Shown here piece after piece: positions 113 to 43,736 of a stretch of 44,065 nt of DNA (the stretch's first letter is position 1; each line of letters starts with the position of its first letter). Where the stretch lies: the IMG/VR virus record IMGVR_UViG_3300037631_006005, positions 1 through 44,065 of that record; one strand, given 5' to 3'. The notes under the pieces were generated by a model, which worked only from the letters and a program-made list of their open reading frames with translations, was not told the origin of the DNA and did not search any database. Source of the DNA: a virus (Duplodnaviria > Caudoviricetes). The position numbers and the translations under genes were made by a program.

Positions 113-550
113 TCAAATTAATTCTTTCTCTGTTAGTATAATAAAGGTTAAACCCCTCTTTTTGCCATACTTTTTAGCTGCTTCCCACTTAGCTTGATTA
201 ATAACATAATTTTTTTGCTCGTATATAAGGTGTTGCTTTTTTCTATATTTTGTCTGCGGTGGTTTGGTTTGTTTAGATGGTTTAATCTCTACTAAGTATT
301 TCTTAATATCATTTCCCTCTTTTATTACTACATAGTTATCAACATAATATCTATGAACTCTACCATCTAGTGGACTAGTATATGGTACAATAACATTTTC
401 ACTACCCCATTTTAGTACGTTTTTATTATTATCACAGAATCTAAAAAACTTTAACTCTAGACCTGATCTATATGTAGCTTTTAAACCTATAAACTTTTCT
501 TTATTATTTGGTACAAACTCCCCTTGTCTCCATTTTGGTCTCTTTTTCAT
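113..550 (-). CDS. gp4: Head completion nuclease, T4 gp4-like (TnsA-N-like endonuclease fold)
   Basis: Motifs QGxFxPxNxxK, YRSGLELKFFRFCD, WGSE, PYxSPLDGRVHRYYVD, VEIKP, NQAKWEAA and F-I-ILTE. Coupled to the upstream gene by a TAATG overlap. Confidence 0.9.
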   Translation of the reverse strand: MKKRPKWRQGEFVPNNKEKFIGLKATYRSGLELKFFRFCDNNKNVLKWGSENVIVPYTSPLDGRVHRYYVDNYVVIKEGNDIKKYLVEIKPSKQTKPPQTKYRKKQHLIYEQKNYVINQAKWEAAKKYGKKRGLTFIILTEKELI

Positions 551-1701
551 TACCCAACGAAGAATAAAGTAGGATCATTATCACCCATACCTGGTGATGA
601 ACCTTCTAGTAGTTTTTGCTCTAGCTCTGCTTTCTTAGTAGAACCTTCACTTAACATATCTGCATTTAGAGAGCCGCCTCCAAGTAGATTAACACTACCA
701 AACTTACCTCTTACTCTTCCTATCGTAATCATACTTAACGCTAAAGCATATTCATACACCCACTGCTCTTTAATAATATCTCTAATAGGTCTCTCAAGAT
801 AACACGATATAACACCATAAAATCTCTCTAACTTAGGTTGCGGGTACATTGTTAAATACTGCGTACGTTCATCAAACTGTATGTCCTTCCTTATTGCTAG
901 CATTTTCTCTCTTGTATCCATCCACTCTTTAAGTGAATACCAAGATACTAAATCAAACCCGTAGTTACCTAATGCATAACTAAAATATGTCTGTTGGGCT
1001 AATGTCTGCTCCAAAGTAAATAATGTATTAATACCGGAGGATGAACCTTGTTCAAAGTCTGTAACGGACATAACTTTCCTATAATCCATTACATCGTAAT
1101 CATATACATTTTGAAAGGTAGTAGCATCAGTAGAGGTACCTTCCATAGATAGAGTTTTTCTTCTATTTTCTTTAAACGAAGAGGATAAAGAAGTATTAAA
1201 CGATGTAATAGTACTATAAAGGGTCTTATCAAACAATTCAAACTGGTCTATACCATCAGTAAACGTAGAAGAAAGAGTAGTTGATGCTGCAAACGCTGAA
1301 GATAATATAGAGGAAGTAGCTGTAAATATAGACTCTGGCGTCTCACCATAAAATTCTACACTTGGCCCTCTAGGATTTGTACCTGCTACTTTCTTAGCGT
1401 TACTATCAAGATCTGTATTGGCTAGGGTATACAATAGATCTAAACGAATACCTTTATTTGTTTCATATAAATCAGAATCAAATATCATATACTCTCTAGT
1501 ATAGCCTGCGTATTTTGTAAAATATTCTACTGCAATTTGAATATTCTCCCTAAGTTGGTCTGTATGAATCTCTAAAGAAACGAGAGGAAATCCTAAGGAT
1601 CTTTTAATTCTATCACCTAACCTATCGAAAGTTTCAATCTTATTATTTAAATTTGTTGATAGAAAAGCCGAAAGGGGGGTAATTTCACACGCTAGAGCCA
1701 T
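550..1701 (-). CDS. gp13: Neck protein, T4 gp13-like, with an S/T-rich insertion
   Basis: N-terminal IKRSLGFPLVSLEIHTDQLRENIQIAVEYF and C-terminal WVYEYALAL...GRVRGKFGSVNLLGGGSLN...FFVG match the gp13 pattern. Confidence 0.85.
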   Translation of the reverse strand: MALACEITPLSAFLSTNLNNKIETFDRLGDRIKRSLGFPLVSLEIHTDQLRENIQIAVEYFTKYAGYTREYMIFDSDLYETNKGIRLDLLYTLANTDLDSNAKKVAGTNPRGPSVEFYGETPESIFTATSSILSSAFAASTTLSSTFTDGIDQFELFDKTLYSTITSFNTSLSSSFKENRRKTLSMEGTSTDATTFQNVYDYDVMDYRKVMSVTDFEQGSSSGINTLFTLEQTLAQQTYFSYALGNYGFDLVSWYSLKEWMDTREKMLAIRKDIQFDERTQYLTMYPQPKLERFYGVISCYLERPIRDIIKEQWVYEYALALSMITIGRVRGKFGSVNLLGGGSLNADMLSEGSTKKAELEQKLLEGSSPGMGDNDPTLFFVG

Positions 1702-1768
1702 ACCATTATTTAGTCGTACAAAAATAAAAATATAGGAGAAAAAAATATGCTTTATATTAAATATTGAT

Positions 1769-1930
1769 ATGGCACTTTCAGCAACAGTAGTCCCTTCCGT
1801 AACTGGCGGCCCAATGTCCGCAGCATACCTTTCTACATTTATGACAGCAACCGTACCATCCGGTGGTACGTTGATACAAATTCTTGAAACAGGTCCAAGA
1901 ATGGTATTAATCTTTGATGACGGTAATTAA
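1769..1930 (+). CDS. Small unannotated late protein, 53 aa (MALSATVVPSVTGGPMSAAYLSTFMTATVPSGGTLIQILETGPRMVLIFDDGN)
   Basis: Open frame from ATG 1769 to TAA 1930, with TAAATA at 1758-1763 five nt upstream. It fills the gap between portal and gp13, and its stop overlaps the portal stop. Confidence 0.75.
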   Translation: MALSATVVPSVTGGPMSAAYLSTFMTATVPSGGTLIQILETGPRMVLIFDDGN

Positions 1931-3729: not shown

Positions 3730-3749
3730 TATACATATTTATCTAACTA

Positions 3750-4547
3750 TTAATAATAATCACCGTATATATCGGTATTATTAGCACTCATATCAAAAAC
3801 ATCCTCTTTTGACACTACGTCAATGTCATAAGGCTCTTCTTCTGTGGGGTAAGTCTTACCGTCTGAAGTTAGTTGATCTACTAGTGTTGTTGAGAGAGTA
3901 CCACTAAATGAATTATCGTAAATCTGCTCATTTGCCCTTTCTGCAGACAATCCATTTTCAAATGAGAAGTCATAACGCTTACCTCTCAATCTGTAGACAT
4001 AATGTCCTAAGACTGGGTTAAGTGCTGTGAGATCTTGATCCATCCTTTCAGTAATTTCATAAAGAACAGACCCCCTATCATTAGGCCTATCACAACCTAA
4101 TACTGTTAAATCTATTACGTCACCTGCCTTAGGTTCAATAGATTGCCCTACAGAAGAATAATCAAAATATGCAGATGCTGCAGTTGTAAAAGTATCTATA
4201 TGCACATATGCAGTAAATTCATCTCCAGCATCAAAACCGAATTTCGATAAATTAATTGCACTATCATCTAATTCAACATACATTTGAATCCCAGATAAAG
4301 GCCCTTGAAACTTTTTGGTTGTATCTTCACCATATAATAAATCTGCAGCTGATAGATTAAAAGTATTGATATAGTAATCTACTGGTAATCCAAAATTATT
4401 AATAAGGTCATTAAAAGCTTGGTCATACACTAATTGCTCTGCTTGTAAATTGGACGGGTTAACAAGCCTACCGCAGGAGGGTATAGCCGTAGCAGCTAGA
4501 ACTTCTTCTGGTGTACAATTTAACCTATTTTCATTACAGATCGACAT
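3750..4547 (-). CDS. gp14: Neck/head-closure protein, T4 gp14-like
   Basis: LINNFGLPVDYY, DLLYGED, LSKFG, PKAGDVI and LYEIT follow the gp14 pattern. Confidence 0.8.
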   Translation of the reverse strand: MSICNENRLNCTPEEVLAATAIPSCGRLVNPSNLQAEQLVYDQAFNDLINNFGLPVDYYINTFNLSAADLLYGEDTTKKFQGPLSGIQMYVELDDSAINLSKFGFDAGDEFTAYVHIDTFTTAASAYFDYSSVGQSIEPKAGDVIDLTVLGCDRPNDRGSVLYEITERMDQDLTALNPVLGHYVYRLRGKRYDFSFENGLSAERANEQIYDNSFSGTLSTTLVDQLTSDGKTYPTEEEPYDIDVVSKEDVFDMSANNTDIYGDYY

Positions 4548-4548
4548 A

Positions 4549-4884: not shown

Positions 4885-4897
4885 ACCTATATTTATT

Positions 4898-7671: not shown

Positions 7672-8250
7672 ATGGCAAGAAACGCTACACCACAATCTAT
7701 TCTTAATAAGTCTAGAGCTGATAAGTTTCTTTTAATTTTTGATGTACCACCAATTTTAAAGGAATTTAGCTCTAAGTTTAAGAATGATAATAAAACTATA
7801 GTACCAGATTCTGTACAATTTTCAATATATGGTACAGCTGTACCTGAGATAGTTGTACCGGCTGTAGAAAATAGATACGCGGGTAATACACTATATTTGT
7901 CATCTCATTCAAAAAACTCATACCCTCCTGTTAGTGTTAAATTTAATATAGATAATGAGTATAAAAACTACTGGGTTTTATATAATTGGTTAAATCTACT
8001 ACACGATCAAAGAGAAGGTAGGTATAATGCTAGAGAGATAAATGTTGATAAAAACTTTGCCGACTATCAAACAAACCTTACAATTAAAGGTAAGGATGAG
8101 TTTAATAATGATAGAATAAAATTCACTTATACTGGAGCTTTTCCAACGTCTCTTGATTCAATAGATTACGATTATCAGAAATCTAATGAATTGATATCTG
8201 GGTTTACGTTTGTTTATTCACAACTTCACACTGAAATTGTAGATTTTTGA
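7672..8250 (+). CDS. Tail tube terminator / tail completion protein, gp3-like
   Basis: Tube-fold pattern YPPVSVKFNIDNEYKNYWVLYNWL and FTYTGAFPTSL, located before the sheath gene. Confidence 0.7.
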   Translation: MARNATPQSILNKSRADKFLLIFDVPPILKEFSSKFKNDNKTIVPDSVQFSIYGTAVPEIVVPAVENRYAGNTLYLSSHSKNSYPPVSVKFNIDNEYKNYWVLYNWLNLLHDQREGRYNAREINVDKNFADYQTNLTIKGKDEFNNDRIKFTYTGAFPTSLDSIDYDYQKSNELISGFTFVYSQLHTEIVDF

Positions 8251-8282
8251 GTTTTTTGGGCCGAATTTAAATAAATAATTTT

Positions 8283-11039
8283 ATGGCTCAAAGAACTATC
8301 ACCTCACCAGGTGTTGAAATAAGAGAATCGGATTTATCTCTTATTGCACCACAGAATATAGGTACAAATTTTTATATTACAGGATTTGCTCAGCAAGGTC
8401 CATTGGATGAAGTTTTAAAAATTACTACTAAGCAAGAGTTGGACCAGGTATTTGGTACTCCTACTAATTCAGCAGAAAGGTATTTTTACTACTCTATAAG
8501 TGAAATGCTTAATTCTCCAGGAAATGTTTATGCATCCAGACTTCCTTACGGTCCTGGTACCGGTGACGGGTTCGGAGCTAAATATTCTGCTCTAGTTTAT
8601 CCAGTCAGATCAGTTACTAACCCAGCTACAGCGGGTGGCACTTTAAGTGGTTATGATATAACTTTCAAATATCCCAATGCTGCAGCTTCAACAAATGCCC
8701 TTTCTGGTTCTACATTTACCTTTAGAAGCACAACTGGTGCTTTATCCACAGTAGGCTTTACTAAATTTGGAACATCTGACGCAGACTCAACTACTGGTGG
8801 ATATGCTACTGCCCCTAATATACTAATTACGATTGATACCGCTTCTGTATCTAAAACAGCAGCAGCTACTGCAGCTATAGAGGACATCCAAGCTGCCATC
8901 GATGCAGCTCCAGATGCTCAAAACTATGGTACAATCACTAGTGATGGTGCCACGATAACCATTCCAGTTAGTTCTGTTGATTCTGGAGGATCGGCTACAT
9001 CTACTCCAGGTAAGATCTTCCCTTACAGTAATAACGCGGATAACTCGTTTACTATAAGCGGTCTTACTGATTTAGCAACCGACCAAATAGTTACTACAGA
9101 CTTAGATGTGTTATCAGGTACATACGTATTAGGAGAGCCTACCCACCTTGAACTAACTCAAAACGAGTATTTTACTGCTATAGAAGGTTCTGCCTTTAAT
9201 TGGTCGGCAACTGCAGGTGCTAAAGATTCCTTCACTGATATAAGTACTATTGGAGGAGCTGGTTTAGTTGTACTTAATAAAGCTCAAACAACTATTAATA
9301 GCCAGTTTGAAGGTTACTACTTAGGTATAGCTGATAATACAAACATTAATCCAGACTCTAATTTCGATTCTATTATAGACATAAAGTCTGTTGATAAAGA
9401 TCTTGCTTCAACTACCGATTACACAACTATACCTTCCGGTATTTTACAATTCAGTTTATCGGCAACTCCACGTGGTACACAAAATACTGTATCTGAAGTA
9501 ATGGAAAATCTTACAGATTATAACATTGACGGTAGAGAAGATGATGATGTTCTTAACATTGGTGTATTTAAACTCCGTAAATCAATCTACGCTAATGAAG
9601 CATTTAAGCTTGATTATGTTCTTGAAGAAGGAATTGTTGGATCTGCTAACTATCAGAGACAGCAACTTAATTCTAACGGAGGTCCTAACATACCGTTCTT
9701 CCTCGAAACACGCGATAGTCGTTCAAGAAACGTTGAAATATTAGTTAATCCGTATATTTCAAACTACTTTAGTGGTACAGATGCTCTTGTAGATGGTAAG
9801 CCTATAAAGAAGTTAAGAGTTAATACTACTCAGTTAGAGAGTGTTGATTCTGAAATATCTGGTATTGATACTGCTAGATTTACAGAGCTTAACACGCAGT
9901 TAGGTAAAGCTGAAAATCTTTACGCTGCCGGAGCTTTTGTTAATAATAAGATAAAAGATAAGCTCTTAGGTGATATACCAACTAAATTAGATAGAGCATT
10001 AGCAGGAATTAGTAATGATGAAATATATGATATTGACGTTGTTGTTGAAGGTGGTCTAGGTACCGTTTATGCAGCCGCTTCCGCTGCCGAGACAAAATAC
10101 TATGATGAATACGATACTAGCGCTAAGTTAATAGGTGCAGTTGATGGTTTGCGCACTAGTAATGATATTGTTAATGACGCAAGAGATTTAAGAAACAATT
10201 ACTCCACAATCTTTAATAAGTTTGAACAGTTCTGCTCACCACCATACTTAGGAGGTGGTAGAGGAGATTGTATGTTTGTAGGAGATGTATTACGTCATAT
10301 TCTCATAATGGGAGAGAAGTCAAGAGTTCTCGATAACAAAGCGAGAAACTTCCAAAAAGACGTATACTGGCCGATTCGCCACCAGTTTGAGAATGAAAAT
10401 ACATCGTATGCAGCGGTTTACGCACAATGGCCGTTAGTTTATGATAATTATTCTGGTCGTCAAATCTTCATTCCATTCTCAGGATTTGCTGCAGCTGCAA
10501 TGGCTAGAACAGATGCTGCAAACTTCCCATGGTTTGCTCCAGCAGGATTTACTAGAGGATTAGTTCAATTCGCTAACGATCTTGCAGTTAATCCTAACCA
10601 GAAGCAAAGAGATGAACTTTATAAGGCTAACATTAACCCGGTAGCAAACTTCCCTAACCAAGGACAAGTTATATTCGGTCAAAAGACACTTAGTAAGAAG
10701 CCAAGTGCATTTGATAGAATTAACGTTAGAAGGTTGTTCTTAACACTCGAAAGGCCTACTAAGAAAGCTTCTAGGTTCTTCGTATTTGAACAAAATACTG
10801 AGTTTACTCGACAGAGACTTATTAATACTTTAACCCCACTATTCGAAAAAGCTAAAAACAACGAAGGTATTTACGATTACTTGATTGTTTGCGATGAAAG
10901 AAATAACACACCAGAGGTTATTGACGCAAATGAATTAGTAGTAGATATTTACATTAAGCCGGTTAGAACTGCTGAGTTTATCTTAGTTAACTTCTACGCT
11001 ACAAGAACTGATGCAAACTTCGAAGAAATTATCGGTTAA
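8283..11039 (+). CDS. gp18: Tail sheath protein, T4 gp18-like, with large insertion domains
   Basis: SPGVEIRESDLS, WFAPAGFTRG, RDELYKANINPV, FGQKTL, SAFDRINVRRLF and IYIKPVRTAEFILVNF. Confidence 0.97.
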   Translation: MAQRTITSPGVEIRESDLSLIAPQNIGTNFYITGFAQQGPLDEVLKITTKQELDQVFGTPTNSAERYFYYSISEMLNSPGNVYASRLPYGPGTGDGFGAKYSALVYPVRSVTNPATAGGTLSGYDITFKYPNAAASTNALSGSTFTFRSTTGALSTVGFTKFGTSDADSTTGGYATAPNILITIDTASVSKTAAATAAIEDIQAAIDAAPDAQNYGTITSDGATITIPVSSVDSGGSATSTPGKIFPYSNNADNSFTISGLTDLATDQIVTTDLDVLSGTYVLGEPTHLELTQNEYFTAIEGSAFNWSATAGAKDSFTDISTIGGAGLVVLNKAQTTINSQFEGYYLGIADNTNINPDSNFDSIIDIKSVDKDLASTTDYTTIPSGILQFSLSATPRGTQNTVSEVMENLTDYNIDGREDDDVLNIGVFKLRKSIYANEAFKLDYVLEEGIVGSANYQRQQLNSNGGPNIPFFLETRDSRSRNVEILVNPYISNYFSGTDALVDGKPIKKLRVNTTQLESVDSEISGIDTARFTELNTQLGKAENLYAAGAFVNNKIKDKLLGDIPTKLDRALAGISNDEIYDIDVVVEGGLGTVYAAASAAETKYYDEYDTSAKLIGAVDGLRTSNDIVNDARDLRNNYSTIFNKFEQFCSPPYLGGGRGDCMFVGDVLRHILIMGEKSRVLDNKARNFQKDVYWPIRHQFENENTSYAAVYAQWPLVYDNYSGRQIFIPFSGFAAAAMARTDAANFPWFAPAGFTRGLVQFANDLAVNPNQKQRDELYKANINPVANFPNQGQVIFGQKTLSKKPSAFDRINVRRLFLTLERPTKKASRFFVFEQNTEFTRQRLINTLTPLFEKAKNNEGIYDYLIVCDERNNTPEVIDANELVVDIYIKPVRTAEFILVNFYATRTDANFEEIIG

Positions 11040-11064
11040 TACAAAATAACTATTAAATAATATT

Positions 11065-11598: not shown

Positions 11599-11629
11599 GG
11601 GTAGCAAAACTCGACCATAAATATATTAT

Positions 11630-12223: not shown

Positions 12224-12230
12224 TTAATAT

Positions 12231-22708: not shown

Positions 22709-22743
22709 ACAATTATTTATGCAATATAATAAATAATAATATG
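22706..22743. promoter_or_regulatory. Back-to-back divergent late promoters
   Basis: TAAATA at 22714-22719 (minus) and 22730-22735 (plus), each 5 nt from its ATG. Confidence 0.8.
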
Positions 22744-24112: not shown

Positions 24113-24127
24113 CTATTAAATATATAC

Positions 24128-24616: not shown

Positions 24617-24621
24617 AAATT

Positions 24622-28534: not shown

Positions 28535-28548
28535 AATAAATAATATTA

Positions 28549-31341: not shown

Positions 31342-31979
31342 ATTCATACAATATCTCACTTGCAACAACTTCAACATCGTTAACTTCTAATTACGATACT
31401 ATTGATTTGTTTGATCAAACAGAAGTAGGGGTAAATTTAAGCAATATTTTTTCTGATGTATTCCCATACTATGTTGTTATAGACTGGGGAGATGGATCTG
31501 AAGTTTTTGAGCCTGAAATAAAGACGTTTATAAATTATAGAACGGAAAGTATAATAGATGAAATCGTGAAGGGTGTTTCTCCACCATTCCTTAACACTAC
31601 TTACAAGCATATTTACGACCCTTCACCTGATAGTCTGGTTAAATCACTTACCTTAAAAGTTGGTATACAATACACAACAGGGGAAATCACCCAATTTATT
31701 ATTCCTATTGATATTCGCACCGAGGGGTATTACGAAAATATTAGAGATATAAAGCTTGAAGATGTAAAAATAATTAATAATGTAAATCTCGATACTACAC
31801 TACAGCTAAGAACGGAGATTGATAACTACATTATTGAAACAACAAACAATACTAATGCAGATTCCTTCACTTCCTTTGTCGTTAATGATGTAGGCGAAAA
31901 TTTGGAAAAGATTGAACGTGATAATGGGAATGTAATAGTAGATAATAAAGATGGTACTGAAGTCATTATTGTTGAGTAA
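31338..31979 (+). CDS. PKD-like structural protein
   Basis: IDWGDGS...YKHIY motif; ATGA overlap. Confidence 0.55.
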   Translation: MNSYNISLATTSTSLTSNYDTIDLFDQTEVGVNLSNIFSDVFPYYVVIDWGDGSEVFEPEIKTFINYRTESIIDEIVKGVSPPFLNTTYKHIYDPSPDSLVKSLTLKVGIQYTTGEITQFIIPIDIRTEGYYENIRDIKLEDVKIINNVNLDTTLQLRTEIDNYIIETTNNTNADSFTSFVVNDVGENLEKIERDNGNVIVDNKDGTEVIIVE

Positions 31980-32021
31980 TTTGATTCTTTAAAACATAGA
32001 TAATGGCTTAAATATATAGTA

Positions 32022-34343
32022 ATGAGTTCAACTACTGTAAGTTTAAGTACATATAAATCTAATAGAGTGGGGTTGTGTATGGATTCTCTCAACTTAAAAC
32101 AGTTTAGTAGAACTTATGCCGGTAATTTCTCTTTCAACTTTATTACAGCGCTATCTGGAACAGTAGACTTTCAGAATAAAAACTACACTGATTTTTATCT
32201 AACTAATTCAAATACGCTTGATAAATTTATCGAATTTAAATCAGAAAGATTAAAGCCTAAATCTATCTATTCTTCGTTGCAGTTTTCTAAGTGTACCGGT
32301 GGTGGTAATTATCTAAAGTTTGTAAAAAATATTAGACCTAGTTTTTTTAAAGACGATGATAATTTTGTTAACTTACAATTTTATGGGGCTACTGGTTTTA
32401 GTAACAACCAAAATGACAGCTCTAATCTGTTTAATATTGAGTTTATAGACGATTTTTATTGCTCAGTATCATATGTAGACAATAATAAAAGATATTATCT
32501 AGTAGCGTCTGACGACCCTGAAGAAGAGGGTATTATACCTGTGTTATTTGTAAGGGATAATAAACTTAAAGAAGAAAGTAGAAAGATTGAGTATATTCTA
32601 ACTAGGGCAGGTAGTGTACAGTATTTAACGTTTATAGTTAAAAAAGGTAGTAAAAAGTATATTTTAAGAAAACAAGATGACGTGTTAGTAGGTAGGGCTA
32701 TTGATAAGTTTGAAAATATTAACTACTTTTATTTTAACGGTACCTCCGCTAAAATAATTTTTAATCAGAATACGTTAATATCTAACCCTATAAATACATC
32801 GTTTATTGAGTATACAGACACGGAATATTTAGCAAATACAAATAAGAGCTCATTTGATATAGAATCTAATTATCTTTTTTATAAAAATAGTAGTGTAGGA
32901 AGTGGTAATTTTAACCTAATAAATTTAAAAAACATAGCTGACACCGCAGATAGCTTTACTTCCTCAAATAATTTGCTTAGTTCTAATACCGATCTAGTGT
33001 TTAACGATAATATAAGAAATTATACTTCTATATTTAACGATATTAACGCCGAAGAAGACGCATCTTTAGAGTTAAATTTTGTAACTTACAATCTTTCTTA
33101 TAAAATAACACCCGGCTCAACTTCATTTACAGCACCTTCATCTCTAAATCCTTTTGGTAGACTTAATATTAACGATACAAAATTTGTAGAGTCAGGTGCC
33201 TTTGCGTTTCCTTACCCGTATTTTGCTGATAAGGTACATAAAAAGCTAGATAATATACCTGTTACAGAAGGTCAATACTTATGTACTTGGTTATCTGGTA
33301 TGCCAGGTGAAGCGGGTATATGGGTTGATAGATATTACTACCCAGACTTAGTCTCTAAAGCGACAGCATTAGGTAGTAAACCTATTTACAATATTACATA
33401 TGATGATGCCATTGAAAATCTTATTGAGAGTAATACTAAATTAAAAACCTCTGTAACTGAAAAATTATTTTTCGATAAATTAAGCGATCTCACTTTTGAG
33501 CCTAAAAAGGAATATATATACGAAAGAGTTAAAAATATAAAGAAAGTCGACGAAGAACTGCAATTGAAATATTGCGATTTGAAAAACCAAGAACGAAATG
33601 CACCTAACTACTATAAGACTATCAACACTAATGGCGGTTATACCTTAGCGTTTAAGTTTTTTAGTAATGATTTTTCTATAAAATCGCATGTAAATGAAAT
33701 AGATGCAGGATTTTCTATTGTCAAGACAGGTACAATTTTAGAGTTACAATTTAAGTTTTTTGACAATGCGTCAACTCTGTATAAAACTTTTACAAAAAAA
33801 ATTACATTATCTGAGTTAACTAACAACGACCTATATATATCTTTTAATAATTCTACAGGTTTAGGTACGGTATATTTAAATACTATAGAAGTATTTACAT
33901 ATAATTTACTTTCTTTTCAATTTGCTAATAAGCAGATATTATATGGCGATATTAGCTTAACGAGTAAGGATTTTAGTGGGGATATTCTCTTATCGAACAT
34001 ATCAAATAACAACGCTATAAGTGATTTATTTTTATCATTACAGCCTGTATCTACACAGGATCTAATTATATCTATATTTACAAGAAGCATAAAAACAATC
34101 GATGATATATATATTTCCCTACCTTGTGGTATGAGAAACTATACTGATAATATTGATACACTTAATACATTAGGAGCGAATTTAAAATCAAAATCAAACG
34201 TAGTTGATATTAACATCGATAATTTAAATATCACAGATTTAAATATTTTAAATCAGGTAAAGGATAATTTGTTAGCAGGAATACAAAAAAGTTTACCAGC
34301 TACAACAGTAATAAACAAAATAAACTTTAAAAATTTTAAATGA
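32022..34343 (+). CDS. Large hypothetical virion structural protein, beta-rich (possible ConA/LamG-like C-terminal region)
   Basis: Late promoter; GYTLAFKF...LYISFNNSTGLGTVYLN pattern. Confidence 0.55.
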   Translation: MSSTTVSLSTYKSNRVGLCMDSLNLKQFSRTYAGNFSFNFITALSGTVDFQNKNYTDFYLTNSNTLDKFIEFKSERLKPKSIYSSLQFSKCTGGGNYLKFVKNIRPSFFKDDDNFVNLQFYGATGFSNNQNDSSNLFNIEFIDDFYCSVSYVDNNKRYYLVASDDPEEEGIIPVLFVRDNKLKEESRKIEYILTRAGSVQYLTFIVKKGSKKYILRKQDDVLVGRAIDKFENINYFYFNGTSAKIIFNQNTLISNPINTSFIEYTDTEYLANTNKSSFDIESNYLFYKNSSVGSGNFNLINLKNIADTADSFTSSNNLLSSNTDLVFNDNIRNYTSIFNDINAEEDASLELNFVTYNLSYKITPGSTSFTAPSSLNPFGRLNINDTKFVESGAFAFPYPYFADKVHKKLDNIPVTEGQYLCTWLSGMPGEAGIWVDRYYYPDLVSKATALGSKPIYNITYDDAIENLIESNTKLKTSVTEKLFFDKLSDLTFEPKKEYIYERVKNIKKVDEELQLKYCDLKNQERNAPNYYKTINTNGGYTLAFKFFSNDFSIKSHVNEIDAGFSIVKTGTILELQFKFFDNASTLYKTFTKKITLSELTNNDLYISFNNSTGLGTVYLNTIEVFTYNLLSFQFANKQILYGDISLTSKDFSGDILLSNISNNNAISDLFLSLQPVSTQDLIISIFTRSIKTIDDIYISLPCGMRNYTDNIDTLNTLGANLKSKSNVVDINIDNLNITDLNILNQVKDNLLAGIQKSLPATTVINKINFKNFK

Positions 34344-37300
34344 TAAACTATTTTAAATATACTTCAGGAGACGCATTTACACTTAGTGGTGTAGATTATA
34401 ATGGGTTTGTTAATATCGTTGATGGTAGGCCATTTACAGGACGTGTTAAGAACTCCTTTTCGGTTGAGTTAAGCGCGAAAAATAATTTTTTATCGAAAAG
34501 TATTCTTGAAAGGCGTGAGTTTGATAACTCTCCGACATCTTTTACAACAAATAAATTAACAAGTCCTGAATATTCTCCAAGAAATGTTCTCAGTAATGAT
34601 TTTTTAAGAAAAAACTTTAATATACTATATCAAAATAATCTTTCTATCTTTAGTTTAAGCCAGGTCTATAATAATTCTTATTTAGATACTTCTTCTTTTA
34701 AAGGTGAGTCAAAATTTGGTGGGTTTTTTGGTTTATCATCTACAACTGTAGACGAAAGGGATGACGATAACAACACATTAAAGGATCTGGTAACACCATA
34801 CCATATAGACCCATTTAAAAGTGCTAGTAAAGAGAGGTTTCCTGATCTTTTTGAATTAGACAATGCTAAAAAAACATATATCGAAACATTTGATGATGGA
34901 TTTGTATATACTATTACTACTGACACTAAAACAATTGCTTTTAGTGGATGCTTTACTGGTCAAATCGAAAAAATTAGAAATAACAAAGTTCAAAATGATT
35001 TAAACGGAGTAAAAAACTTAGTTGTTGATAAAGCAAACGGGTTTATTTATTCCCCATCTTTAGAAGATAATGGTGTTAACTATACTAATATATATGATAG
35101 GGATATTTACCGTGCATGTTCTAGATTAAAATTGGTAGATAGAATAAAAACTTCTAATTTTAGAGTTGTTAACAATAATGTAAGCTTTGGTAAAACCTAT
35201 AAAGTAGTACAGGTAATAAATGATGAAAATAATGTTGTATTAGAGATTTCACCTAACAGAACTAGTGAGATTCTTGCTACTTTACCTATTTCTAATTTAA
35301 ATAACCCGGAATATGTTAAAGTAGAGTCAAGATTTACGGATGATCTACTACTAATAGTGACTAAACCGGTAAGTAATACCGAAATTTTTAACACCTACTT
35401 TATAGATTTACCAGAATTTATAGAAAGCGGTGTAATTCCTGAACCTATAGAAATTAGTAGAGTCAATTTTGAAGAAAAACCTCTATCCCCTATTGGTCTG
35501 GATAATATGTTTACTGTTTTTGGTGTAGCTAGTTCATTATATGTTGAAAATACTCTAAATGGTCAACTTTCTCCAGAACCCCGCTACTACTATCCGTTAT
35601 TTGAAAATAAGTCTGCTGTAAAGGAGTTTAGCTTATCAGAACCACGCGAAATTACTTTTCCAGAAGAAAGTTCCTTCGCGGGTAGGGTTTTTTACTTTGC
35701 AGAGGATTATTTGAATGGATCAGAAGAGAGACCGGATGGATTTTTTATCTATCGTGGTAATGATAAATTAATTAAAATGGATATATCTTTTTCTGATTAT
35801 GATAGTAACTTATTCTTACTAACAGATAACGGTAATGTAACAGAACGAATGATAACTAATCCTTTACCTGTTACTTCTTTTACAGATTTAGAAGATTTAT
35901 TATTACCACCAGATATTCTCTTTACATCCCCTTACAAATTTAACACAAATTCATGGAAGTTTAATACTAACCTCCTCGAATCAAATAACGTATCCTTGAT
36001 TAATAACTTTACAGATACGTTAAAAGATAAGACTTATTCTTATTACCATAACATAGGTAGAATTTACTTTTCTTCTGATAAAAGCAATAAAAAGCGAATA
36101 AGTTTAGCACCTGCTGATCTACAAAGCTTTTTTAATCCGGATATTTTTAATACGGTTTGTGAAACTAGTTTAGGTGTTAATGTAAACATTTTAATACAAG
36201 ATATTTTACGCGATACTATTAATATATATAACAATTTTACAAGAATACCCAAAGCAGGTGTAGTAAAAAGTTTCAAAAAGCTCGGATTAAATACCTCCGA
36301 CGTTACCCCGGAACCGGCAGAGAAGATTAAATTAGGAAGGGTTACTTCACGTGTTGAAAATACTCCGTTTGAGCCTTTAACCGACGAGCAACTAAAACTG
36401 ATAGATGTTGCGTTTGATATTGGGTCTACGAGTTCCAGAACGGAGTCTTTTTTAACTTATAAAAAAGTTCCTGACCTCACGCCGTTCTTGCCGAAAAGTG
36501 GCTCCGTATTTGACATTAGAGAGGATTATATAAATGCTCAAAAAGAATGGGATAAACTTCCAAACCCGATCTATGCAAAGTTACCGGATGGCACCGAAAG
36601 GTTGGACGCTGCGGGAACGAAGACGCGTAAAATTATCAGCAATCTAGGACCATTCAAGATGATGTTACGACCTGCTGAAGCTTTTAATTTGAGTTACGCT
36701 AGAGATACCCGGGTTAGAGATTCTCATTATGGTGTCGATTTTGCTGATAAGCCTGATGTGATAACAAATATTTCTGTAAATTATCGAAGGTCATTTGGGA
36801 CGGACAACCTAGATTCTAATGCGTTCTTCCCGAGGGGTCAGATACCCAACGGCTACCGGAAGTTCGTAATACCTACGAGTGGAATCCACGGTTCAGGTAT
36901 ATTCGTCAAACATTTCAATGGCAAATACGTGGGAGGTAATCTGGGCCGGGAATTTCCAGCGATGGGTGTAAAGATAATTGGTCGGCCAAGCCCCGTTGTC
37001 TTTCCGGATTTTTATACGGAAGAGGAAAAAGCAGAGTATGCAAATGATCCAGACTCCTATGAATCAGAACGATTGAGGTTTGTGAAATCCTCCAGGGAAG
37101 CGCGCCAGTTCTCCGGCCGGAGTGGTGGTGACGGAAACGGTTTGTTTTTCTCACTGTTCGGCTACCCGCCTGGTCCAAAGGATGTAGAGTATACTGGCAT
37201 TTTTGATAGTGTACATATAAAAGGCGACAATGGAGAAATACGTGGTGATGGTGGTATCAATGATATAAATGGTAATTACTTACCAATTTACGGTGATGGA

Positions 37301-38104
37301 GAAGCCCCTAAGGGTTATGCCATGGGTGAGACCGGGTTTTTGCCCGGGTTGAACGAAGATGACCCAAACGACAGCGATGGTTTGCAGCTCGTAAAAAGCC
37401 GCACGCGTGCTAAAAATGCCGAGATCCGGTCAAGGTACGATGTCAGCGCTTATAAAAAATATCTTGAAATACGTGACCTCAGTAAAAGAGAGCAAATAGA
37501 ATATTACTATGATCGCATAGGAAGAAAAGGTCCCGAGAATTACTATATTGTTGTAGAGGATCACGTCGGCAATATTAGTGAGACTCAGGTTGATTATGGC
37601 ACGTACAGTGAATTTCAACAAATGTCTGAAGCAGAAAAAATGGAGAGGTACTATGTCATTCCAGAAGTTTTTGATTGTGAAAATGCAAATGTTAGGTGGA
37701 AAGAAGGAGTAGACGAATATAATTTACCAAAGGGAGCTAACCTAAATCAGTTAATTGAGGTTAGCGAAGGTACAATCCTCGACGTTACACCCTCACAGGT
37801 CGGTGATGATTACGGTGGTGAGATACAAACGTTCACAGTTAGGGTAAATATACCTGATGGATTCGTAGCTCCAAACCTTGAGAATATTGCATCTATACCC
37901 TGCAAAATAAAAGGTACAAATGGTGAAAACTTTTATGGTGTTAAAGTATTTAACGATTATAAGATACCTGCGCCGCTAGAGATAGATACGCGCAATTTCT
38001 ATTTTCATAGTAATGAGAGTGTAAACTACTTATCTGTTAACAGAGTATTTAGTAAATTATTTGAACTTCAGAAAACTATTTACGATAGCATTCTAAGCAG
38101 CTAA
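34340..38104 (+). CDS. Large virion protein with a GC-rich inserted domain
   Basis: 1254-aa ORF with an ATGA overlap and a composition shift at about 36270-37900. Confidence 0.65.
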   Translation: MINYFKYTSGDAFTLSGVDYNGFVNIVDGRPFTGRVKNSFSVELSAKNNFLSKSILERREFDNSPTSFTTNKLTSPEYSPRNVLSNDFLRKNFNILYQNNLSIFSLSQVYNNSYLDTSSFKGESKFGGFFGLSSTTVDERDDDNNTLKDLVTPYHIDPFKSASKERFPDLFELDNAKKTYIETFDDGFVYTITTDTKTIAFSGCFTGQIEKIRNNKVQNDLNGVKNLVVDKANGFIYSPSLEDNGVNYTNIYDRDIYRACSRLKLVDRIKTSNFRVVNNNVSFGKTYKVVQVINDENNVVLEISPNRTSEILATLPISNLNNPEYVKVESRFTDDLLLIVTKPVSNTEIFNTYFIDLPEFIESGVIPEPIEISRVNFEEKPLSPIGLDNMFTVFGVASSLYVENTLNGQLSPEPRYYYPLFENKSAVKEFSLSEPREITFPEESSFAGRVFYFAEDYLNGSEERPDGFFIYRGNDKLIKMDISFSDYDSNLFLLTDNGNVTERMITNPLPVTSFTDLEDLLLPPDILFTSPYKFNTNSWKFNTNLLESNNVSLINNFTDTLKDKTYSYYHNIGRIYFSSDKSNKKRISLAPADLQSFFNPDIFNTVCETSLGVNVNILIQDILRDTINIYNNFTRIPKAGVVKSFKKLGLNTSDVTPEPAEKIKLGRVTSRVENTPFEPLTDEQLKLIDVAFDIGSTSSRTESFLTYKKVPDLTPFLPKSGSVFDIREDYINAQKEWDKLPNPIYAKLPDGTERLDAAGTKTRKIISNLGPFKMMLRPAEAFNLSYARDTRVRDSHYGVDFADKPDVITNISVNYRRSFGTDNLDSNAFFPRGQIPNGYRKFVIPTSGIHGSGIFVKHFNGKYVGGNLGREFPAMGVKIIGRPSPVVFPDFYTEEEKAEYANDPDSYESERLRFVKSSREARQFSGRSGGDGNGLFFSLFGYPPGPKDVEYTGIFDSVHIKGDNGEIRGDGGINDINGNYLPIYGDGEAPKGYAMGETGFLPGLNEDDPNDSDGLQLVKSRTRAKNAEIRSRYDVSAYKKYLEIRDLSKREQIEYYYDRIGRKGPENYYIVVEDHVGNISETQVDYGTYSEFQQMSEAEKMERYYVIPEVFDCENANVRWKEGVDEYNLPKGANLNQLIEVSEGTILDVTPSQVGDDYGGEIQTFTVRVNIPDGFVAPNLENIASIPCKIKGTNGENFYGVKVFNDYKIPAPLEIDTRNFYFHSNESVNYLSVNRVFSKLFELQKTIYDSILSS

Positions 38105-38118: not shown

Positions 38119-38835
38119 ATGTCGGCGAGTTTAGAAAATCAATTTATCTCAGATAGGTATACATCCCTCTTACATTTAAGTGGTAGCTCAATTACAGCAG
38201 ATTTAGATTCTGTATTCGACGGGTTAGGCAACGCAGCGCCTATTCAAATAAGTGATAGTAGAGTAGTTATTGGAGCTGGTAGTTCAATTATAGATGTAGA
38301 TGAAAATGAGAATACAGTTAGTATAAATAATATACTATTACCTACTGTTTCTACCGCTACTACGTTATTCGATGTAATATTTCCGGTTGATTCAATTTAT
38401 CTTACGGCTACTAACACTAATCCTAGTAATACATTCGTTGGTACAGTATGGGAATTAGTTTCAGAAGGTAGGTATCTAGCAGGTGTCGGTGTTGGTACTG
38501 ATAAAAATGGTGATCAAGAAACTATTAGAGAGGGCGATCTTGATAATATTGGGGAATACAACCACACACTAACCCAGCCCGAGATGCCGAAACATAAGCA
38601 TGGATTTTCAGGAGGTGATGATAGGGGAGATACGCAAGGTTTATCGCCATTTTTAATTACACGTGATGATCCTGAACAAAGAATACTTCCCGGTGAACCA
38701 GGTAATCAGGATTTTCAATCTGGTGGGTCGTCTGGATCGGATGGAGAGACAGGTATTTTCGCTGCTGGTGGAAGTCAATCACATAATAATACTCCACCGT
38801 ACTTCGGAGTTTACGTTTGGAAAAGAACACTTTAA
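38119..38835 (+). CDS. Baseplate/short fibre protein with a gp10-C-like domain
   Basis: FPVDSIYL...NPSNTFVGTVWE...GRYLAGVG...HTLTQPEMPKHKH...HNNTPPYFGVYVWKRT. Confidence 0.75.
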   Translation: MSASLENQFISDRYTSLLHLSGSSITADLDSVFDGLGNAAPIQISDSRVVIGAGSSIIDVDENENTVSINNILLPTVSTATTLFDVIFPVDSIYLTATNTNPSNTFVGTVWELVSEGRYLAGVGVGTDKNGDQETIREGDLDNIGEYNHTLTQPEMPKHKHGFSGGDDRGDTQGLSPFLITRDDPEQRILPGEPGNQDFQSGGSSGSDGETGIFAAGGSQSHNNTPPYFGVYVWKRTL

Positions 38836-38847: not shown

Positions 38848-40287
38848 ATGCCAGATATTACAATAGTAAAGATAAAAGTGAGACGTGGATCAGATGATCA
38901 ACGTAAGAAATTAGTATTAGACCAAGGTGAGTTAGGTTATACTATAGACACTAAAAGAGTGTTCGTAGGTGACGGTTCTTTATCCGGTGGTAGGGTTGTA
39001 GGTAATAAGAACTTCGGTGTCGTTAATTTAGAATCTAGTCTAGGTAATGTCGCAGGCGCTCAAATAGGAGATATCGGCTACGCTAATTCAAAACTATACA
39101 CTCTTACAGCAAGTGAGTATGATTCTTCACTTACCGGCTGGGCTTATATAGGACCTGCACCAGATAATGAAAATATTGAATTTACAGCTGCAAATACACT
39201 AACTGTCAAGACAAGCTCTTTAGATGCTGATGATATAAAAGAAGCTGCTTTTGGTGATGGTTTAAAAAAGGATGGTAGTGCTATTGCAGTTGCTTATAAT
39301 GCTAATAGCTTCGCGCTTTCTTCTTCACTACTAACAATAAGAGATAATGCTATTACGGAATATGAAATTTCCCCCACCACCGTCTTGAGTGGATTAGCTG
39401 GAGGTGGAGGTATTCCAATTAGTATCAATATTGGAGACGGTTTAGAGTTAGATGATGATAACAATCTACAAACTGCGGCCGCAAAAGCTAATTCAGTAAC
39501 TTTTGAGTCATTTGATGCACAAGCGTTTGGTGATGGGTTATTATATAATAACACTACTAATCAAATTGAAAGTATTTTATCTGGTATTAACACAGAAAAT
39601 TTTAACTTACACAAAAAACAACTTTCTCTCGTAAATCAAGCTGTATCTGGAGATTACGAAATGGCACGAATCTCATTAAATGATTATGGTATAATAGATG
39701 GTGTACCCGAATCTGCCTTCTATGATTGCTTAACAGCGACATCGTTAACAGGAGCTGATTTTGTACCTGTAGGTGCTATATTACCACATGCAGCTGCTAT
39801 AGGTACAGTACCTGACGGTTATCTACTTTGTAATGGGCATTATTTATCACGTGATCCTGCTCCTGTTGGGTACAAGGAGCTTTTTGACGTTATAGGTACT
39901 AATTATGGTAGTAATAGTAATACCAACTTTAGATTACCTAATTTAACAGGCGGTAATGTGTTACAATTTGGTACCGGTGAAGCTCCTAATTCTCAATTCT
40001 GGTATTTAACAGGCAGTCAGACAGATTCAAGTGGTGCCAATTTATCAGCACTTGCTACGAACTATATAATTAAATACACATCTTCACAAACAGGCATATT
40101 TACAGGAGCACCTAACCAAGTATCACAAGGTATTATGCATAATGGTACAACCTACTCTACTACTGATTCAGACGGCATTACACAGATTCTCAGTTCAGCA
40201 GGATTTTTAACACTAGCTTTGAGTGGGACTACGCGAAATAATGACGAGACTTTTGATAGATATGCAATTCCAATCTTTAACTACTAA
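38848..40287 (+). CDS. Tail fibre protein: Mtd_N-like N-terminus plus phage tail collar domain
   Basis: KVRRG...LDQGELGYTIDTKRVFVGDG...GG, and the collar motif VPVGAILP...PDGYLLCNG...ELFDVIGTNYG...FRLPNL. Confidence 0.8.
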   Translation: MPDITIVKIKVRRGSDDQRKKLVLDQGELGYTIDTKRVFVGDGSLSGGRVVGNKNFGVVNLESSLGNVAGAQIGDIGYANSKLYTLTASEYDSSLTGWAYIGPAPDNENIEFTAANTLTVKTSSLDADDIKEAAFGDGLKKDGSAIAVAYNANSFALSSSLLTIRDNAITEYEISPTTVLSGLAGGGGIPISINIGDGLELDDDNNLQTAAAKANSVTFESFDAQAFGDGLLYNNTTNQIESILSGINTENFNLHKKQLSLVNQAVSGDYEMARISLNDYGIIDGVPESAFYDCLTATSLTGADFVPVGAILPHAAAIGTVPDGYLLCNGHYLSRDPAPVGYKELFDVIGTNYGSNSNTNFRLPNLTGGNVLQFGTGEAPNSQFWYLTGSQTDSSGANLSALATNYIIKYTSSQTGIFTGAPNQVSQGIMHNGTTYSTTDSDGITQILSSAGFLTLALSGTTRNNDETFDRYAIPIFNY

Positions 40288-40295
40288 CATATACC

Positions 40296-41807
40296 ATGGC
40301 TTCAATTGAAATATTAGAAAACACACTCTTAAAACTACTAGTACGTAGAGGTACTAACGAAGATAGAAAAAATATAACTTTAGATGAAGGTGAATTGGGA
40401 TATGCTTCCGACACTACACGATTGTTTATAGGTGATGGTACTACTGTTGGAGGTAATTTAATTGGTAATAGATTTTTAGGTAGTACAGAGGATCTCACTA
40501 ATTTACCTGGTGAAATAAATGATTTAGCTTTCGACAGTGATAATAGAACATTACAACGCATTAAGCAAAATAACGGTTCTGATATTTCAGATTGGGAAAC
40601 AGTATCAAATTTATTGAGCTCGGGTAATGAGTCTATTGTAATTGATGATGCTCAACGCGCGACGGTAGGTACTCTCTCTGCTAATAACTTTTCAGCTGAT
40701 GCGCTAGGAAATAGTATTGAACTTGACACAGGCAATAGAATATCTTTAAAACGTATTATTAATATTGATGAGATTACACAGCGTACTGTTGATGCTACTA
40801 GCTACTTAACTTTACCTTCTAAGCTTGACATTAATGCAATTGATTATGATTTCCCTTCTATAGCTCCATCAACAAATAATAGTTTTCTTCTATCTGATAT
40901 AAATAATCAATTAACGTGGGGATTACCTCCAGTTGTAACAAGCGTTGTACCAACAACTACAGCAAATCAAATACCTGCAGGTACGATAGTACCTTTTATA
41001 ACAGGAGCTGAGTATATCCCATACGGTTGGTTAAAGTGTGATGGCTCTCTCGTCGCCGGCGCAGATTATCCGGAATTGTCAGCTGTAATGGGTAATAGGT
41101 ATGGTGGTGATACAGTTAACTTTAACTTACCGGATTTAACTAATAGTGCTCTTTACGGTACAAACGTAAACGATCCATTTTTATCTACAAAATATAGTAT
41201 AGCTTCAGGTCATAGTACTGATACTAACGAGCTTTCTGCGTTCGGGACAACATTTATTATTAAAGCCATTGAGGCCTATGTACAAGCACCCACTCTAACC
41301 GTCAACACACCATTATCCGCTTCATTAAACGGGTACGATATTACCAACAAAGCCACAGAATTTCTAGATGGTACACTTGAGGTAGGATTATCTAGTTATA
41401 AGGAAGATAACTGCATATATAAAACAGTTTACCTTGACGATCCTTATACACTACTTGAAGGAAGGGAGAACTTCCCAGATGGAATGAAGGCATGGAGAAC
41501 ATTTAATTTAGACGCGCTAGCGCCGCCGTCTGTGGGTATAAAGGCGATTTTTGGACTAGCAAGGATGGGTGATCGACAGACCAAAAGCTCCACTGCGTTG
41601 TACAGTACCTATGATAATTCTTTACCACCAAACGGAACTTCTAGAAAATTTATGATAGCTGAACACCAGGCACCTTCAAAAAAACATGATATGCATGCTG
41701 CGGGATTTTCAGCAAGAGTTGATAAAGCTAATAATAATATTTACTTGGCTAAGGAGAACTACATAGGCGGCGACGCGTATATAGAAATTCATGGATATAG
41801 CGTTTAA
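40296..41807 (+). CDS. Tail fibre protein paralog: Mtd_N-like, collar and distinct C-terminal domain
   Basis: LVRRG...LDEGELGYASDTTRLFIGDG, and IPAGTIVPF...GWLKCDG...YPELSAVMG..YGG...FNLPDL. Confidence 0.8.
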   Translation: MASIEILENTLLKLLVRRGTNEDRKNITLDEGELGYASDTTRLFIGDGTTVGGNLIGNRFLGSTEDLTNLPGEINDLAFDSDNRTLQRIKQNNGSDISDWETVSNLLSSGNESIVIDDAQRATVGTLSANNFSADALGNSIELDTGNRISLKRIINIDEITQRTVDATSYLTLPSKLDINAIDYDFPSIAPSTNNSFLLSDINNQLTWGLPPVVTSVVPTTTANQIPAGTIVPFITGAEYIPYGWLKCDGSLVAGADYPELSAVMGNRYGGDTVNFNLPDLTNSALYGTNVNDPFLSTKYSIASGHSTDTNELSAFGTTFIIKAIEAYVQAPTLTVNTPLSASLNGYDITNKATEFLDGTLEVGLSSYKEDNCIYKTVYLDDPYTLLEGRENFPDGMKAWRTFNLDALAPPSVGIKAIFGLARMGDRQTKSSTALYSTYDNSLPPNGTSRKFMIAEHQAPSKKHDMHAAGFSARVDKANNNIYLAKENYIGGDAYIEIHGYSV

Positions 41808-41824
41808 GTGCTGTAAATAACTAT

Positions 41825-41983: not shown

Positions 41984-42005
41984 TTCTACCGTATAAATAT
42001 GTATA

Positions 42006-42869
42006 ATGGCCTTCCCATCCGACATTCTTCTACCATCTGATGCAAGATATTATCAGTTTGTAGAGACAGATTTAAGTTATAACTCAAATTATGACATAGT
42101 ATGGTCGTTACAGTTTAAATTACCTGGTGATAATGTATATAATAGTAACTATGAGTATGCGTTTGGTACTTTTTTAACTTCTTTAACAGGAGAACTATCA
42201 GCTCTACCCGGTCAATATGTAGGTGATACTGACCCTCTATTAGTAGCAGGACAAGAATCATTAATCACAGAACAATCCCCTACATCCTCGATAACTACTC
42301 AGGGAGGTATAAATTTAGTTATAGATTCTACAACTTTAAGCGGTCAACTCATTAAAGTGGTGTTCGATAGTACAGGCATGTATGGACTATCAGGTAGAGA
42401 CGGTAGAGATGGTGTTGGAGAGCATCAAATAAAGAAAAATAGCTTATGTATACGTGATTTTTCTCACGATTTAGTGTTTTACGAACATTTATCAGCTTTT
42501 TCACCTACTTTTTCGCTAACTTCTGATGAATTTCAAACATTAAGGGTTAGATATGCTAATTTAGGTACTAAAATCTCCATAGATAAGAAGATAAGTAACA
42601 AATATCAAACTCTAACCACTGTGGAGTTGCCATTTAGACTTAAAGAATTCAATAATCTTGACAATATTTACGTTGGTTATTCGTTTAGCACGCCAATCTC
42701 TACACAAAATACAGCATTATCTGTAGGAAACTTCTTCGTTAAAAATGCTCACATAGAAGGATTGGAAACTACTGAAGTATTAACGCAGACGGTTACTTCA
42801 GCTCCGTTAAAGTTTAATCCAAATAAATCTTTTACAACGGTATCTAGTATTAACGCTATACCAGAGTAG
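42006..42869 (+). CDS. Beta-sandwich, L-type lectin-like virion protein
   Basis: TATAAATA promoter. IVWSLQF, FGTFL, KVVFDSTG and FQTLRVRY resemble the strand order of legume lectins. Confidence 0.45.
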   Translation: MAFPSDILLPSDARYYQFVETDLSYNSNYDIVWSLQFKLPGDNVYNSNYEYAFGTFLTSLTGELSALPGQYVGDTDPLLVAGQESLITEQSPTSSITTQGGINLVIDSTTLSGQLIKVVFDSTGMYGLSGRDGRDGVGEHQIKKNSLCIRDFSHDLVFYEHLSAFSPTFSLTSDEFQTLRVRYANLGTKISIDKKISNKYQTLTTVELPFRLKEFNNLDNIYVGYSFSTPISTQNTALSVGNFFVKNAHIEGLETTEVLTQTVTSAPLKFNPNKSFTTVSSINAIPE

Positions 42870-42899
42870 ATTTAAAAATAAGACGATGTAAATAGTCTC

Positions 42900-43736
42900 G
42901 TGAGTAAGCTGACTATCGGACTGGCTGTGTATGATGATTATGATGGAGCTTTTTTTACCCTTCAGTCACTAAGAATGTACCATTCCGAGGTAATGGATAG
43001 GGTTGAATTTGTTGTTATAAATAACAATCCTACAAGTGAGCACGGGAAAGCTCTTAAAAATATGGTTGATATAATAACTGAACCAAAAACCTATATAGAG
43101 TTTACAAAGTATAGTAGCCCTTTTATAAAAGGTAAAATTTTTGATATAGCAGACACGGAATACGTATTAGTTATGGATAGTCATGTTTTGCTAGCACCAG
43201 GTTCCCTTAAAAAGTTACTCGATTACTACGACAAAGGTCTAGATAACGGTAATTTGTTGCAAGGTCCACTACTATACGACGATTTATGTAATGTATCTAC
43301 CCATTTTGACTTTTCTTCTAAGAAGTGGAGCGGTTATATGTGGGGCGCGTGGGCTACAGATGATAGAGGTAAAAAATCATCTAGTAAACCATTCACTATA
43401 CCTGGCAACGGTATGGGGTTATTTAGCTGTAGAAAAGATGCTTGGTTAGGCTTCAATAAAAGTATGAGAGGGTTTGGTGGTGAAGAAGGTTATATACACG
43501 AAAAGTATAAACTTGAAGGTAAAGAAACTATATGCTTACCATTTCTAAGATGGAATCACCGTTTTGCTAAACCTAGTGGTACTCCTTATAAGCTTGATGT
43601 AAAACAAAGGTTTAGAAATTATATGATTGCTTTTAAAGAGGTAGGGAAGGATACACAAGAAGTAATTGATAACTTTACACCAGTTGTTCCTGCAGATTAT
43701 ATAAATGAAGTAAAGCAGGAGTTAGATATTACCTAG
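42900..43736 (+). CDS. GT-A fold glycosyltransferase (GT2/GT27-like)
   Basis: LTIGLAVYD, EFVVINN, EYVLVMDSH, GLFSCRK, GFGGEE and WNHRF...PY. GTG start 5 nt after TAAATA. Confidence 0.9.
   Translation: MSKLTIGLAVYDDYDGAFFTLQSLRMYHSEVMDRVEFVVINNNPTSEHGKALKNMVDIITEPKTYIEFTKYSSPFIKGKIFDIADTEYVLVMDSHVLLAPGSLKKLLDYYDKGLDNGNLLQGPLLYDDLCNVSTHFDFSSKKWSGYMWGAWATDDRGKKSSSKPFTIPGNGMGLFSCRKDAWLGFNKSMRGFGGEEGYIHEKYKLEGKETICLPFLRWNHRFAKPSGTPYKLDVKQRFRNYMIAFKEVGKDTQEVIDNFTPVVPADYINEVKQELDIT

Follow-up and report, generated by a model that had tools for sequence, protein, structure and literature searches.

RESULTS

The L-S-[A/S/G] motif in the window

We analyzed a stretch of DNA of 44,065 nucleotides (hereafter the window), positions 1 to 44,065 of IMG/VR virus record IMGVR_UViG_3300037631_006005. 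Pfam and PHROG matches identify it as a 44-kb fragment of a T4-like phage, with neck, portal, terminase, sheath, tube, baseplate and collar-fibre genes; its closest cultured phages are distant, with portal identities of 27-35%. Our subject is a short motif, Leu-Ser followed by Ala, Ser or Gly (L-S-[A/S/G], or LS[AGS]), that recurs in the outer virion proteins of this phage and its relatives, a large, uncultured, aquatic T4-like group, together with the phage glycosyltransferases (GTs) that may modify it. An earlier note on this DNA had proposed that LS[A/G] is an O-glycosylation sequon confined to outer virion proteins, and that the transferase encoded at 42900 starts or extends a glycan coat.

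The gene-by-gene counts given in that note all match ours, with 33 LS[A/G] tripeptides in total, including one in the small open reading frame (ORF) at 1769-1930. The 37 main genes hold 32, against 12.0 expected from per-protein shuffles; none of 2000 shuffles reached 32, and the highest gave 24. Confinement to the named genes was also borne out, since the remaining 26 main genes (the gene at 31338 included) have none, and 12 outer-protein genes carry all 32 LS[AG] and 51 of 58 LS[AGS] sites. This division into outer and other genes is post hoc, drawn after the motif had been seen, and the independent test is provided by the relatives described below. LSS, which the earlier note overlooked, is the second most enriched tripeptide of the window (26 versus 8.3), and we therefore define the motif as L-S-[A/S/G]. 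The broader consensus that had been suggested, hydrophobic-S/T-small, is weak: the 12 outer-protein genes contain 18 [IVF]S[AG] versus 13.3 expected and 14 LT[AG] versus 5.8. Because the 58 LS[AGS] sites are encoded by 49 distinct 9-mers, the motif is not a DNA repeat. The genes in question are listed in Table 1.

Table 1. Genes of the window that bear on the motif. "Family" gives LS[AGS] observed versus expected for the protein family; "columns" are distinct alignment columns carrying the motif.
Feature	Position	Strand	Evidence and motif content
gp13-like head-tail adaptor	550..1701	-	phrog_211, E 1e-19; 1 LS[AG]; family 13 vs 3.0, 4 sequences
53-aa ORF, motif at its start	1769..1930	+	1 LS[AG]; ORF and motif kept in 3 close relatives
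gp14-like head closure	3750..4547	-	phrog_679; 3 LS[AG]; family 37 vs 4.5, 12 columns
Tail sheath	8283..11039	+	Pfam/PHROG; 4 LS[AG] at residues 121, 140, 277 and 392, all in middle domains
PKD-domain protein in baseplate-wedge gene run	26444..28534	+	PF18911; position after gp6 suggests wedge role; 3 LS[AG]; family 59 vs 9.8, 32 columns
Wedge-region protein	28549..31341	+	No Pfam/PHROG family match; 3 LS[AG]; family 57 vs 12.7
Small wedge-region protein	31338..31979	+	0 LS[AG] in window, yet family motif-bearing, 20 vs 4.2
Wedge-region protein	32022..34343	+	2 LS[AG]; family 92 vs 26.2, 36 columns
Large baseplate/fibre-region protein	34340..38104	+	2 LS[AG]; family 21 vs 6.1, 5 sequences
gp10-C-domain tail protein	38119..38835	+	PF21939, E 8e-19; 1 LS[AG]; family 29 vs 11.3
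Collar-domain fibre protein	38848..40287	+	PF07484, PF18454; 5 LS[AG] and 6 LT[AG]; family 213 vs 38.4, 52 columns
Second collar-domain fibre protein	40296..41807	+	PF07484, PF18454; 4 LS[AG]; family 166 vs 29.4
Fibre-operon protein	42006..42869	+	4 LS[AG]; family 97 vs 18.4; Thr/Pro tail added in some relatives (L006)
Soluble GT-A glycosyltransferase, GTa	42900..43736	+	Polypeptide GalNAc-transferase-like shape; ends fibre operon

The motif across relatives

We collected 158 loci of relatives via the transferase, fibre and sheath proteins; their 2547 ORFs, window proteins excluded, were dereplicated at 70% to 1016. The IMG/VR relatives include complete genomes of ~195-250 kb. Observed and expected counts in the 158 loci were 359 and 100.5 for LSA, 449 and 179.4 for LSS, and 324 and 134.6 for LSG, so that, among 8000 tripeptides, only TTT, PPP and CCP join these three in the top six by enrichment. 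Both fixed positions are strict: Ile, Val or Phe before the Ser gives only 0.9-1.3x, and Thr in place of Ser 1.1-1.5x (LTA, 1.5x). Position -2 shows a preference for Pro, Ala, Ser or Thr.

As a control for shared ancestry we counted distinct alignment columns. The motif occupies 289 columns in 11 families, and at most of these columns fewer than half of the sequences carry it. When distinct sites are divided by the expected count, LSA comes out highest among 1229 tripeptides (3.01; median, 0.64). Motif-bearing families are neck, sheath, wedge and fibre proteins. Zero motifs were found in the tube, hub, portal, gp25 and GT families of the relatives, the TerL family has 4 versus 10.1 expected, and replication and portal anchors of six motif-rich complete genomes have 28 versus 25.3. 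A wider set of sheaths (139 of usable length among the best 150 from 1.8 billion representatives, plus references) contains 398 motifs versus 170 expected and includes two motif-poor subgroups, one of 11 sequences (13/18, observed/expected) and one of 6 (3/5). The cultured T4-like controls P-SSM7 (1/2.2) and Mosig (3/2.5) have neither a motif excess in core virion families nor the conserved transferases described below.

Several further proteins drew our attention. The major capsid protein (G001 3-836, minus strand; G003 104667-106142, plus strand) has one conserved site in five of seven GT-bearing genomes, which is absent in G011 and G050. A 1580-residue protein of G020 (100870-105612, minus strand) carries 36 LS[AGS] versus 4.8 expected and adjoins a sulfotransferase and a putative transferase that has no Pfam match and that we take to be GT9-like. 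In fibre-type proteins of G017 and G026 (e.g., the G026 19039 region, L548), short tandem repeats rich in Asn, Trp and Ser top the tripeptide ranking; they could be a second acceptor or a fibre repeat. The distant T4-like phage G022 encodes a 4103-residue protein with 14 LSG (64169-76480, minus strand), which may be a repeat, and no transferase of the families considered here was found within the 80 kb covered.

Two regions of the window itself also deserve mention. The protein at 34340-38104 is 1254 residues long, compared with 684-702 in its orthologues in L002 and L004, and its central part, a variable insertion, is richer in G+C. At 22741-23870 lie two very basic, Lys/Arg-rich, motif-free small proteins (phrog_7595 and phrog_11180), possibly DNA-binding internal head proteins.

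Placement of sites on the sheath

An AlphaFold model of the sheath (82 sequences; mean predicted local distance difference test score [pLDDT], 84.9) places one of the four motif serines of the window's sheath in a strand and the other three in loops. In the 82 homologues, residues 106-555 hold 247 of 287 motif serines and 3154 of 5555 other serines; these middle domains presumably face outward, as in T4 gp18. Lower constraint there could add to the site bias. By structure, 135 motif serines fall in loops, 69 in helices, 44 in strands and 39 in insertions. The sites are thus not mostly in beta-strands, and their strand share does not exceed that of other serines (18% versus 15%; p 0.24), a result that speaks against the motif being a mark of beta-sandwich folds.

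GTa is not required for the motif

The transferase at 42900, GTa, is a 278-residue single soluble catalytic domain with no match among 50,697 phage records. Structure model comparison gives a GT-A fold closest to polypeptide N-acetylgalactosamine (GalNAc) transferases, with the DxH motif present and 15-17% identity to mouse GalNAc-T1 (8v9q) and Toxoplasma GalNAc-T3 (8uhv). Polypeptide GalNAc-transferases of family GT27 have a type II membrane anchor and a ricin lectin domain. GTa resembles CAZy GT27 in its fold and DxH motif and differs in its low identity and in the lack of both additions, neither of which was found in the model or by Pfam.

The supposed role of GTa as writer of the motif is not supported. 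Three near-complete relatives (G015, G017 and G053; 93-100% complete) are motif-rich (3.6-5.1x) without it, and G053, the sister of the window in a 14-marker tree, has other genes in the GTa slot in contiguous DNA; GTa is therefore not required for the motif, and its role as necessary writer of LS sites is largely refuted. GTa is instead associated with poly-Thr proteins, its neighbours in phages and bacteria alike. A mucin-like protein lies directly upstream in 46 of 70 phage GTa loci and within 6 kb in 53, and one is found in 21 of 78 bacterial GTa loci versus 1 of 252 sheath loci, an imperfect control drawn from another genome region. Bacterial GTa loci show no LS[AGS] excess (601 versus 530). 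GTa is likely a second, optional initiator of mucin-type glycosylation on Thr/Pro tracts, judging from these gene neighbourhoods.

Some bacterial GTa homologues (L203, L216, L232, L237 and L261, at ~8200-12400) sit in a cluster resembling those for ribosomally synthesized and post-translationally modified peptides (RiPPs), with an HPr-kinase-like/GT fusion, PqqD and NTP_transf_5. The NTP_transf_5 family occurs in 30 of 78 bacterial loci; the clusters sometimes include a sulfotransferase and adjoin leader-bearing proteins with poly-Thr tails. Our literature search found no published description of such a bacterial RiPP-like GTa cluster.

Three conserved transferases are lost together with the motif

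Three other transferases, all located outside the window, are present in all six motif-rich near-complete genomes: GTb (GT-A, GT2-like), GTc (GT4-like, fixed in position between gp46 and the DNA polymerase) and GTd (GT-A, PF13712-like). We compared LS[AGS] observed/expected per genome over eight core virion families. Genomes with GTa (G001, 26/6.6; G002, 26/6.2; G003, 33/7.4) and without it (G015, 26/7.1; G017, 31/8.6; G053, 38/7.4) are alike motif-rich. Three genomes that lack the transferases (GT-less genomes) are at background: G011, 6/5.2 (1.15x); G050, 8/6.4 (1.26x); and the fragment G012, 4/4.9. In G011 (99% complete) and G050 (93%), all four transferases are absent by profile search, and GTb, GTc and GTd also by six-frame search; 103 further G011 ORFs of at least 150 residues contain no Pfam transferase. 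In the GT-less genomes GTc is cleanly missing between gp46 and the polymerase.

In the FastTree phylogeny G011, G050 and G012 group together as a single branch (support 1.0, with long branches) that arises from within the GT-bearing genomes. By an unbiased profile, the six motif-rich genomes share 43 families, of which 35 are found in both G011 and G050, 2 in one of them and 6 in neither. The six missing families are GTb, GTc, GTd, two proteins of ~100 residues and the hub, whose divergence has probably put it beyond detection. Of the 29 cells that GT-less orthologues fill at 11 conserved motif columns, 1 still shows the motif and 3 others a Ser without it; replacements at the lost sites include Tyr, Phe, Lys and Asp.

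Related GT-bearing genomes differ in their sugar clusters. G001 23262-33953 and G003 83718-90160 hold varying sets of GT2s, epimerases, a DegT aminotransferase, a transketolase-like pair, an FkbM methyltransferase and a NodZ/FUT8-like gene, a gene content that suggests strain-variable glycans. G011 encodes several BspA-type leucine-rich-repeat proteins (67351-71645 and 188915-202240), perhaps an alternative surface decoration.

DISCUSSION

A candidate serine sequon and its alternatives

The sequon idea of the earlier note gains support in its core but not in two of its parts. The motif excess across the clade, its strictness, the turnover of its sites, its restriction to outer families and its loss with three transferases in one branch are direct observations that speak for it; the link to GTa and the hydrophobic-S/T-small consensus are not supported. 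We consider it probable that L-S-[A/S/G] is a sequon for O-glycosylation of its Ser, from which the phage would build a glycan coat, and that one of GTb, GTc and GTd modifies it.

A number of points weigh against this reading. Chemistry, writer and purpose are all read from sequence, and the presence of GTb, GTc and GTd in the phage of the window is read from its relatives. Structural comparisons of the three transferases, weak or empty, gave no protein-modifying match. Surface exposure of the sheath sites rests on domain position. Motif and transferases were lost together only once, on branches that are long and were seen with FastTree only, and the GT-less genomes differ in other ways, with ThyA in G011 and G050 and NrdD in G011; a niche shift could thus have removed motif and transferases independently. 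Two small core proteins and the hub homologue are also undetected there, and G050 retains the best-conserved sheath site and four sheath motifs. G019 has all three transferases with a weak core excess (10/5.7, p 0.06), although one giant protein of this genome has 22/4.2 LS[AGS], and the fragments G025 and G027 give 2/1.3 each. The control phage Mosig itself has 65 LS[AGS] against 40.6 expected over its whole genome, a background excess that reaches 1.6x. Finally, GTc is encoded among replication genes, as might be expected of an enzyme that modifies DNA.

Three other explanations were weighed. That GTa itself writes the LS[A/G] sites we regard as very improbable: its gene is the last of the fibre operon, it has the fold of polypeptide GalNAc-transferases, and it has stayed intact in the window and in the five GT loci closest to it, although no mucin-like protein lies nearby in any of these six, but the motif-rich genomes without it and its association with mucin-like and poly-Thr proteins tell against it. 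The tripeptide might instead be unmodified and reflect the structure or composition of the beta-rich outer domains, or serve as the docking site of a small decoration protein. The mild background excess in unrelated proteins and the two small proteins lost with the motif fit this view. It is difficult to reconcile with serines that are not strand-enriched on the sheath, with a Leu that is not exchangeable for Ile or Val, with GT-less orthologues that mostly swap the site for other residues, or with cultured T4-like controls that have no excess, and we judge it unlikely.

It is also rather doubtful, to our mind, that the Ser is modified by a host enzyme or in another way (e.g., by phosphorylation) while the transferases, whose substrate would be DNA or the host envelope, disappeared during the same shift of niche. 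There is only one loss event, GTc lies among replication genes, and DNA and host-surface roles of phage transferases are discussed in PMC12619734 and PMC12801897. For DNA glycosylation, a thymidylate-synthase-family enzyme supplies the acceptor base (PMC13326640). No such gene (PF00303) was found in 13 GT-bearing records, compared with 2 GT-less records that have it and 10 of 14 controls; the handle for T4-type DNA glucosylation, a hydroxylase or hydroxymethylase of this family, is thus missing. For the TET/JBP route a match was found in 0 of 15 records, in a search where no positive control scored. The co-lost core set includes no named kinase, ligase or protease (two members are unannotated), and the phages that carry the motif are deeply diverged, so that one host enzyme common to all of them is improbable.

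Proposed mechanism and implications

Under the serine-sequon reading, a soluble phage transferase would act in the cytoplasm, where it would recognize Leu-Ser-small in late proteins and place the first sugar on the Ser. The initiator would be one of GTb, GTc and GTd; we favour GTc, solely by analogy to GT4 serine transferases such as GtfA. The other two core transferases and the variable sugar-nucleotide and transferase clusters may then lengthen the chain, and vary it, within the host cytoplasm. Selection would retain several sites per exposed protein while their positions shift, and the resulting coat could shield or tune the particle. GTa would be an optional second initiator acting on Thr/Pro tracts. 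More broadly, and with about as much reason for doubt as for confidence, we tentatively propose that a widespread uncultured T4-like clade has a general, sequon-directed cytoplasmic O-glycosylation system. The L-S-[A/S/G] of a dozen virion proteins that are otherwise unrelated would be the signal for a core transferase, strain-variable clusters would build different glycans on it and so a phage "serotype" coat, and a GalNAc-transferase-like enzyme would supply mucin-type tracts as an option.

Few phages have had their virion glycosylation measured. With a rule of three residues and candidate enzymes that can be named, the question becomes testable. If the proposal is correct, abundant aquatic phages carry variable glycan coats, possibly affecting adsorption, grazing and host range; the glycosylation rule could be read from sequence across thousands of genomes; and a small cytoplasmic transferase with a Ser sequon would be a useful tool for glyco-engineering.

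Comparison with known systems

We found neither a sequon for phage virion glycosylation nor this motif in the literature covered, which did not extend to subscription journals. Among bacterial systems, general O-glycosylation in Bacteroidota is host-encoded and periplasmic and uses the sequon D-(S/T)-hydrophobic. It resembles the proposed system in that a three-residue sequon is common to many unrelated proteins. The consensus is different, Asp before Ser not being enriched in our 158 loci (D-S-A, 0.71x; D-S-G, 1.11x; D-S-S, 1.07x), and virion assembly is cytoplasmic, unlike the periplasmic modification of Bacteroidota. Cytoplasmic glycosylation of Ser is known from GtfA/GtfB and SdgA/B (GT4) and the heptosyltransferases AAH/TibC, in which a soluble initiator acts and further enzymes extend. 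GTc is GT4-like, as are GtfA/GtfB and SdgA/B, and may likewise add the first sugar to Ser in the cytoplasm, although it has no sequence match among solved structures. All of these systems modify repeat tracts of one adhesin family, whereas the clade motif is spread over unrelated proteins, and we know of no bacterial cytoplasmic Ser system whose consensus matches L-S-small.

Among phages, the Moraphages are large, aquatic and uncultured, with four core putative glycosyltransferases, and virion glycosylation is mentioned as a possibility for them (PMC12619734). The available text of that paper describes heat-shock genes (DnaK in some) and no identified tape measure, and reports no sequence motif; by this description they can be compared with the phages studied here, in which HSP70 was found in 0 of 10 genomes. 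A functional parallel comes from mycobacteriophages, where phage-encoded glycosyltransferases are reported to place glycans at the C-termini of capsid and tail-tube subunits (Freeman et al. 2023, cited in PMC12619734 and PMC10877033). As proposed here, phage-encoded transferases act on structural proteins, and a shielding role has been put forward. In contrast to those C-terminal glycans, the candidate sites of the present clade, absent from the tube, form a short internal motif that recurs in the neck, the sheath, the wedge and the fibres, in a dozen proteins with no relation to each other.

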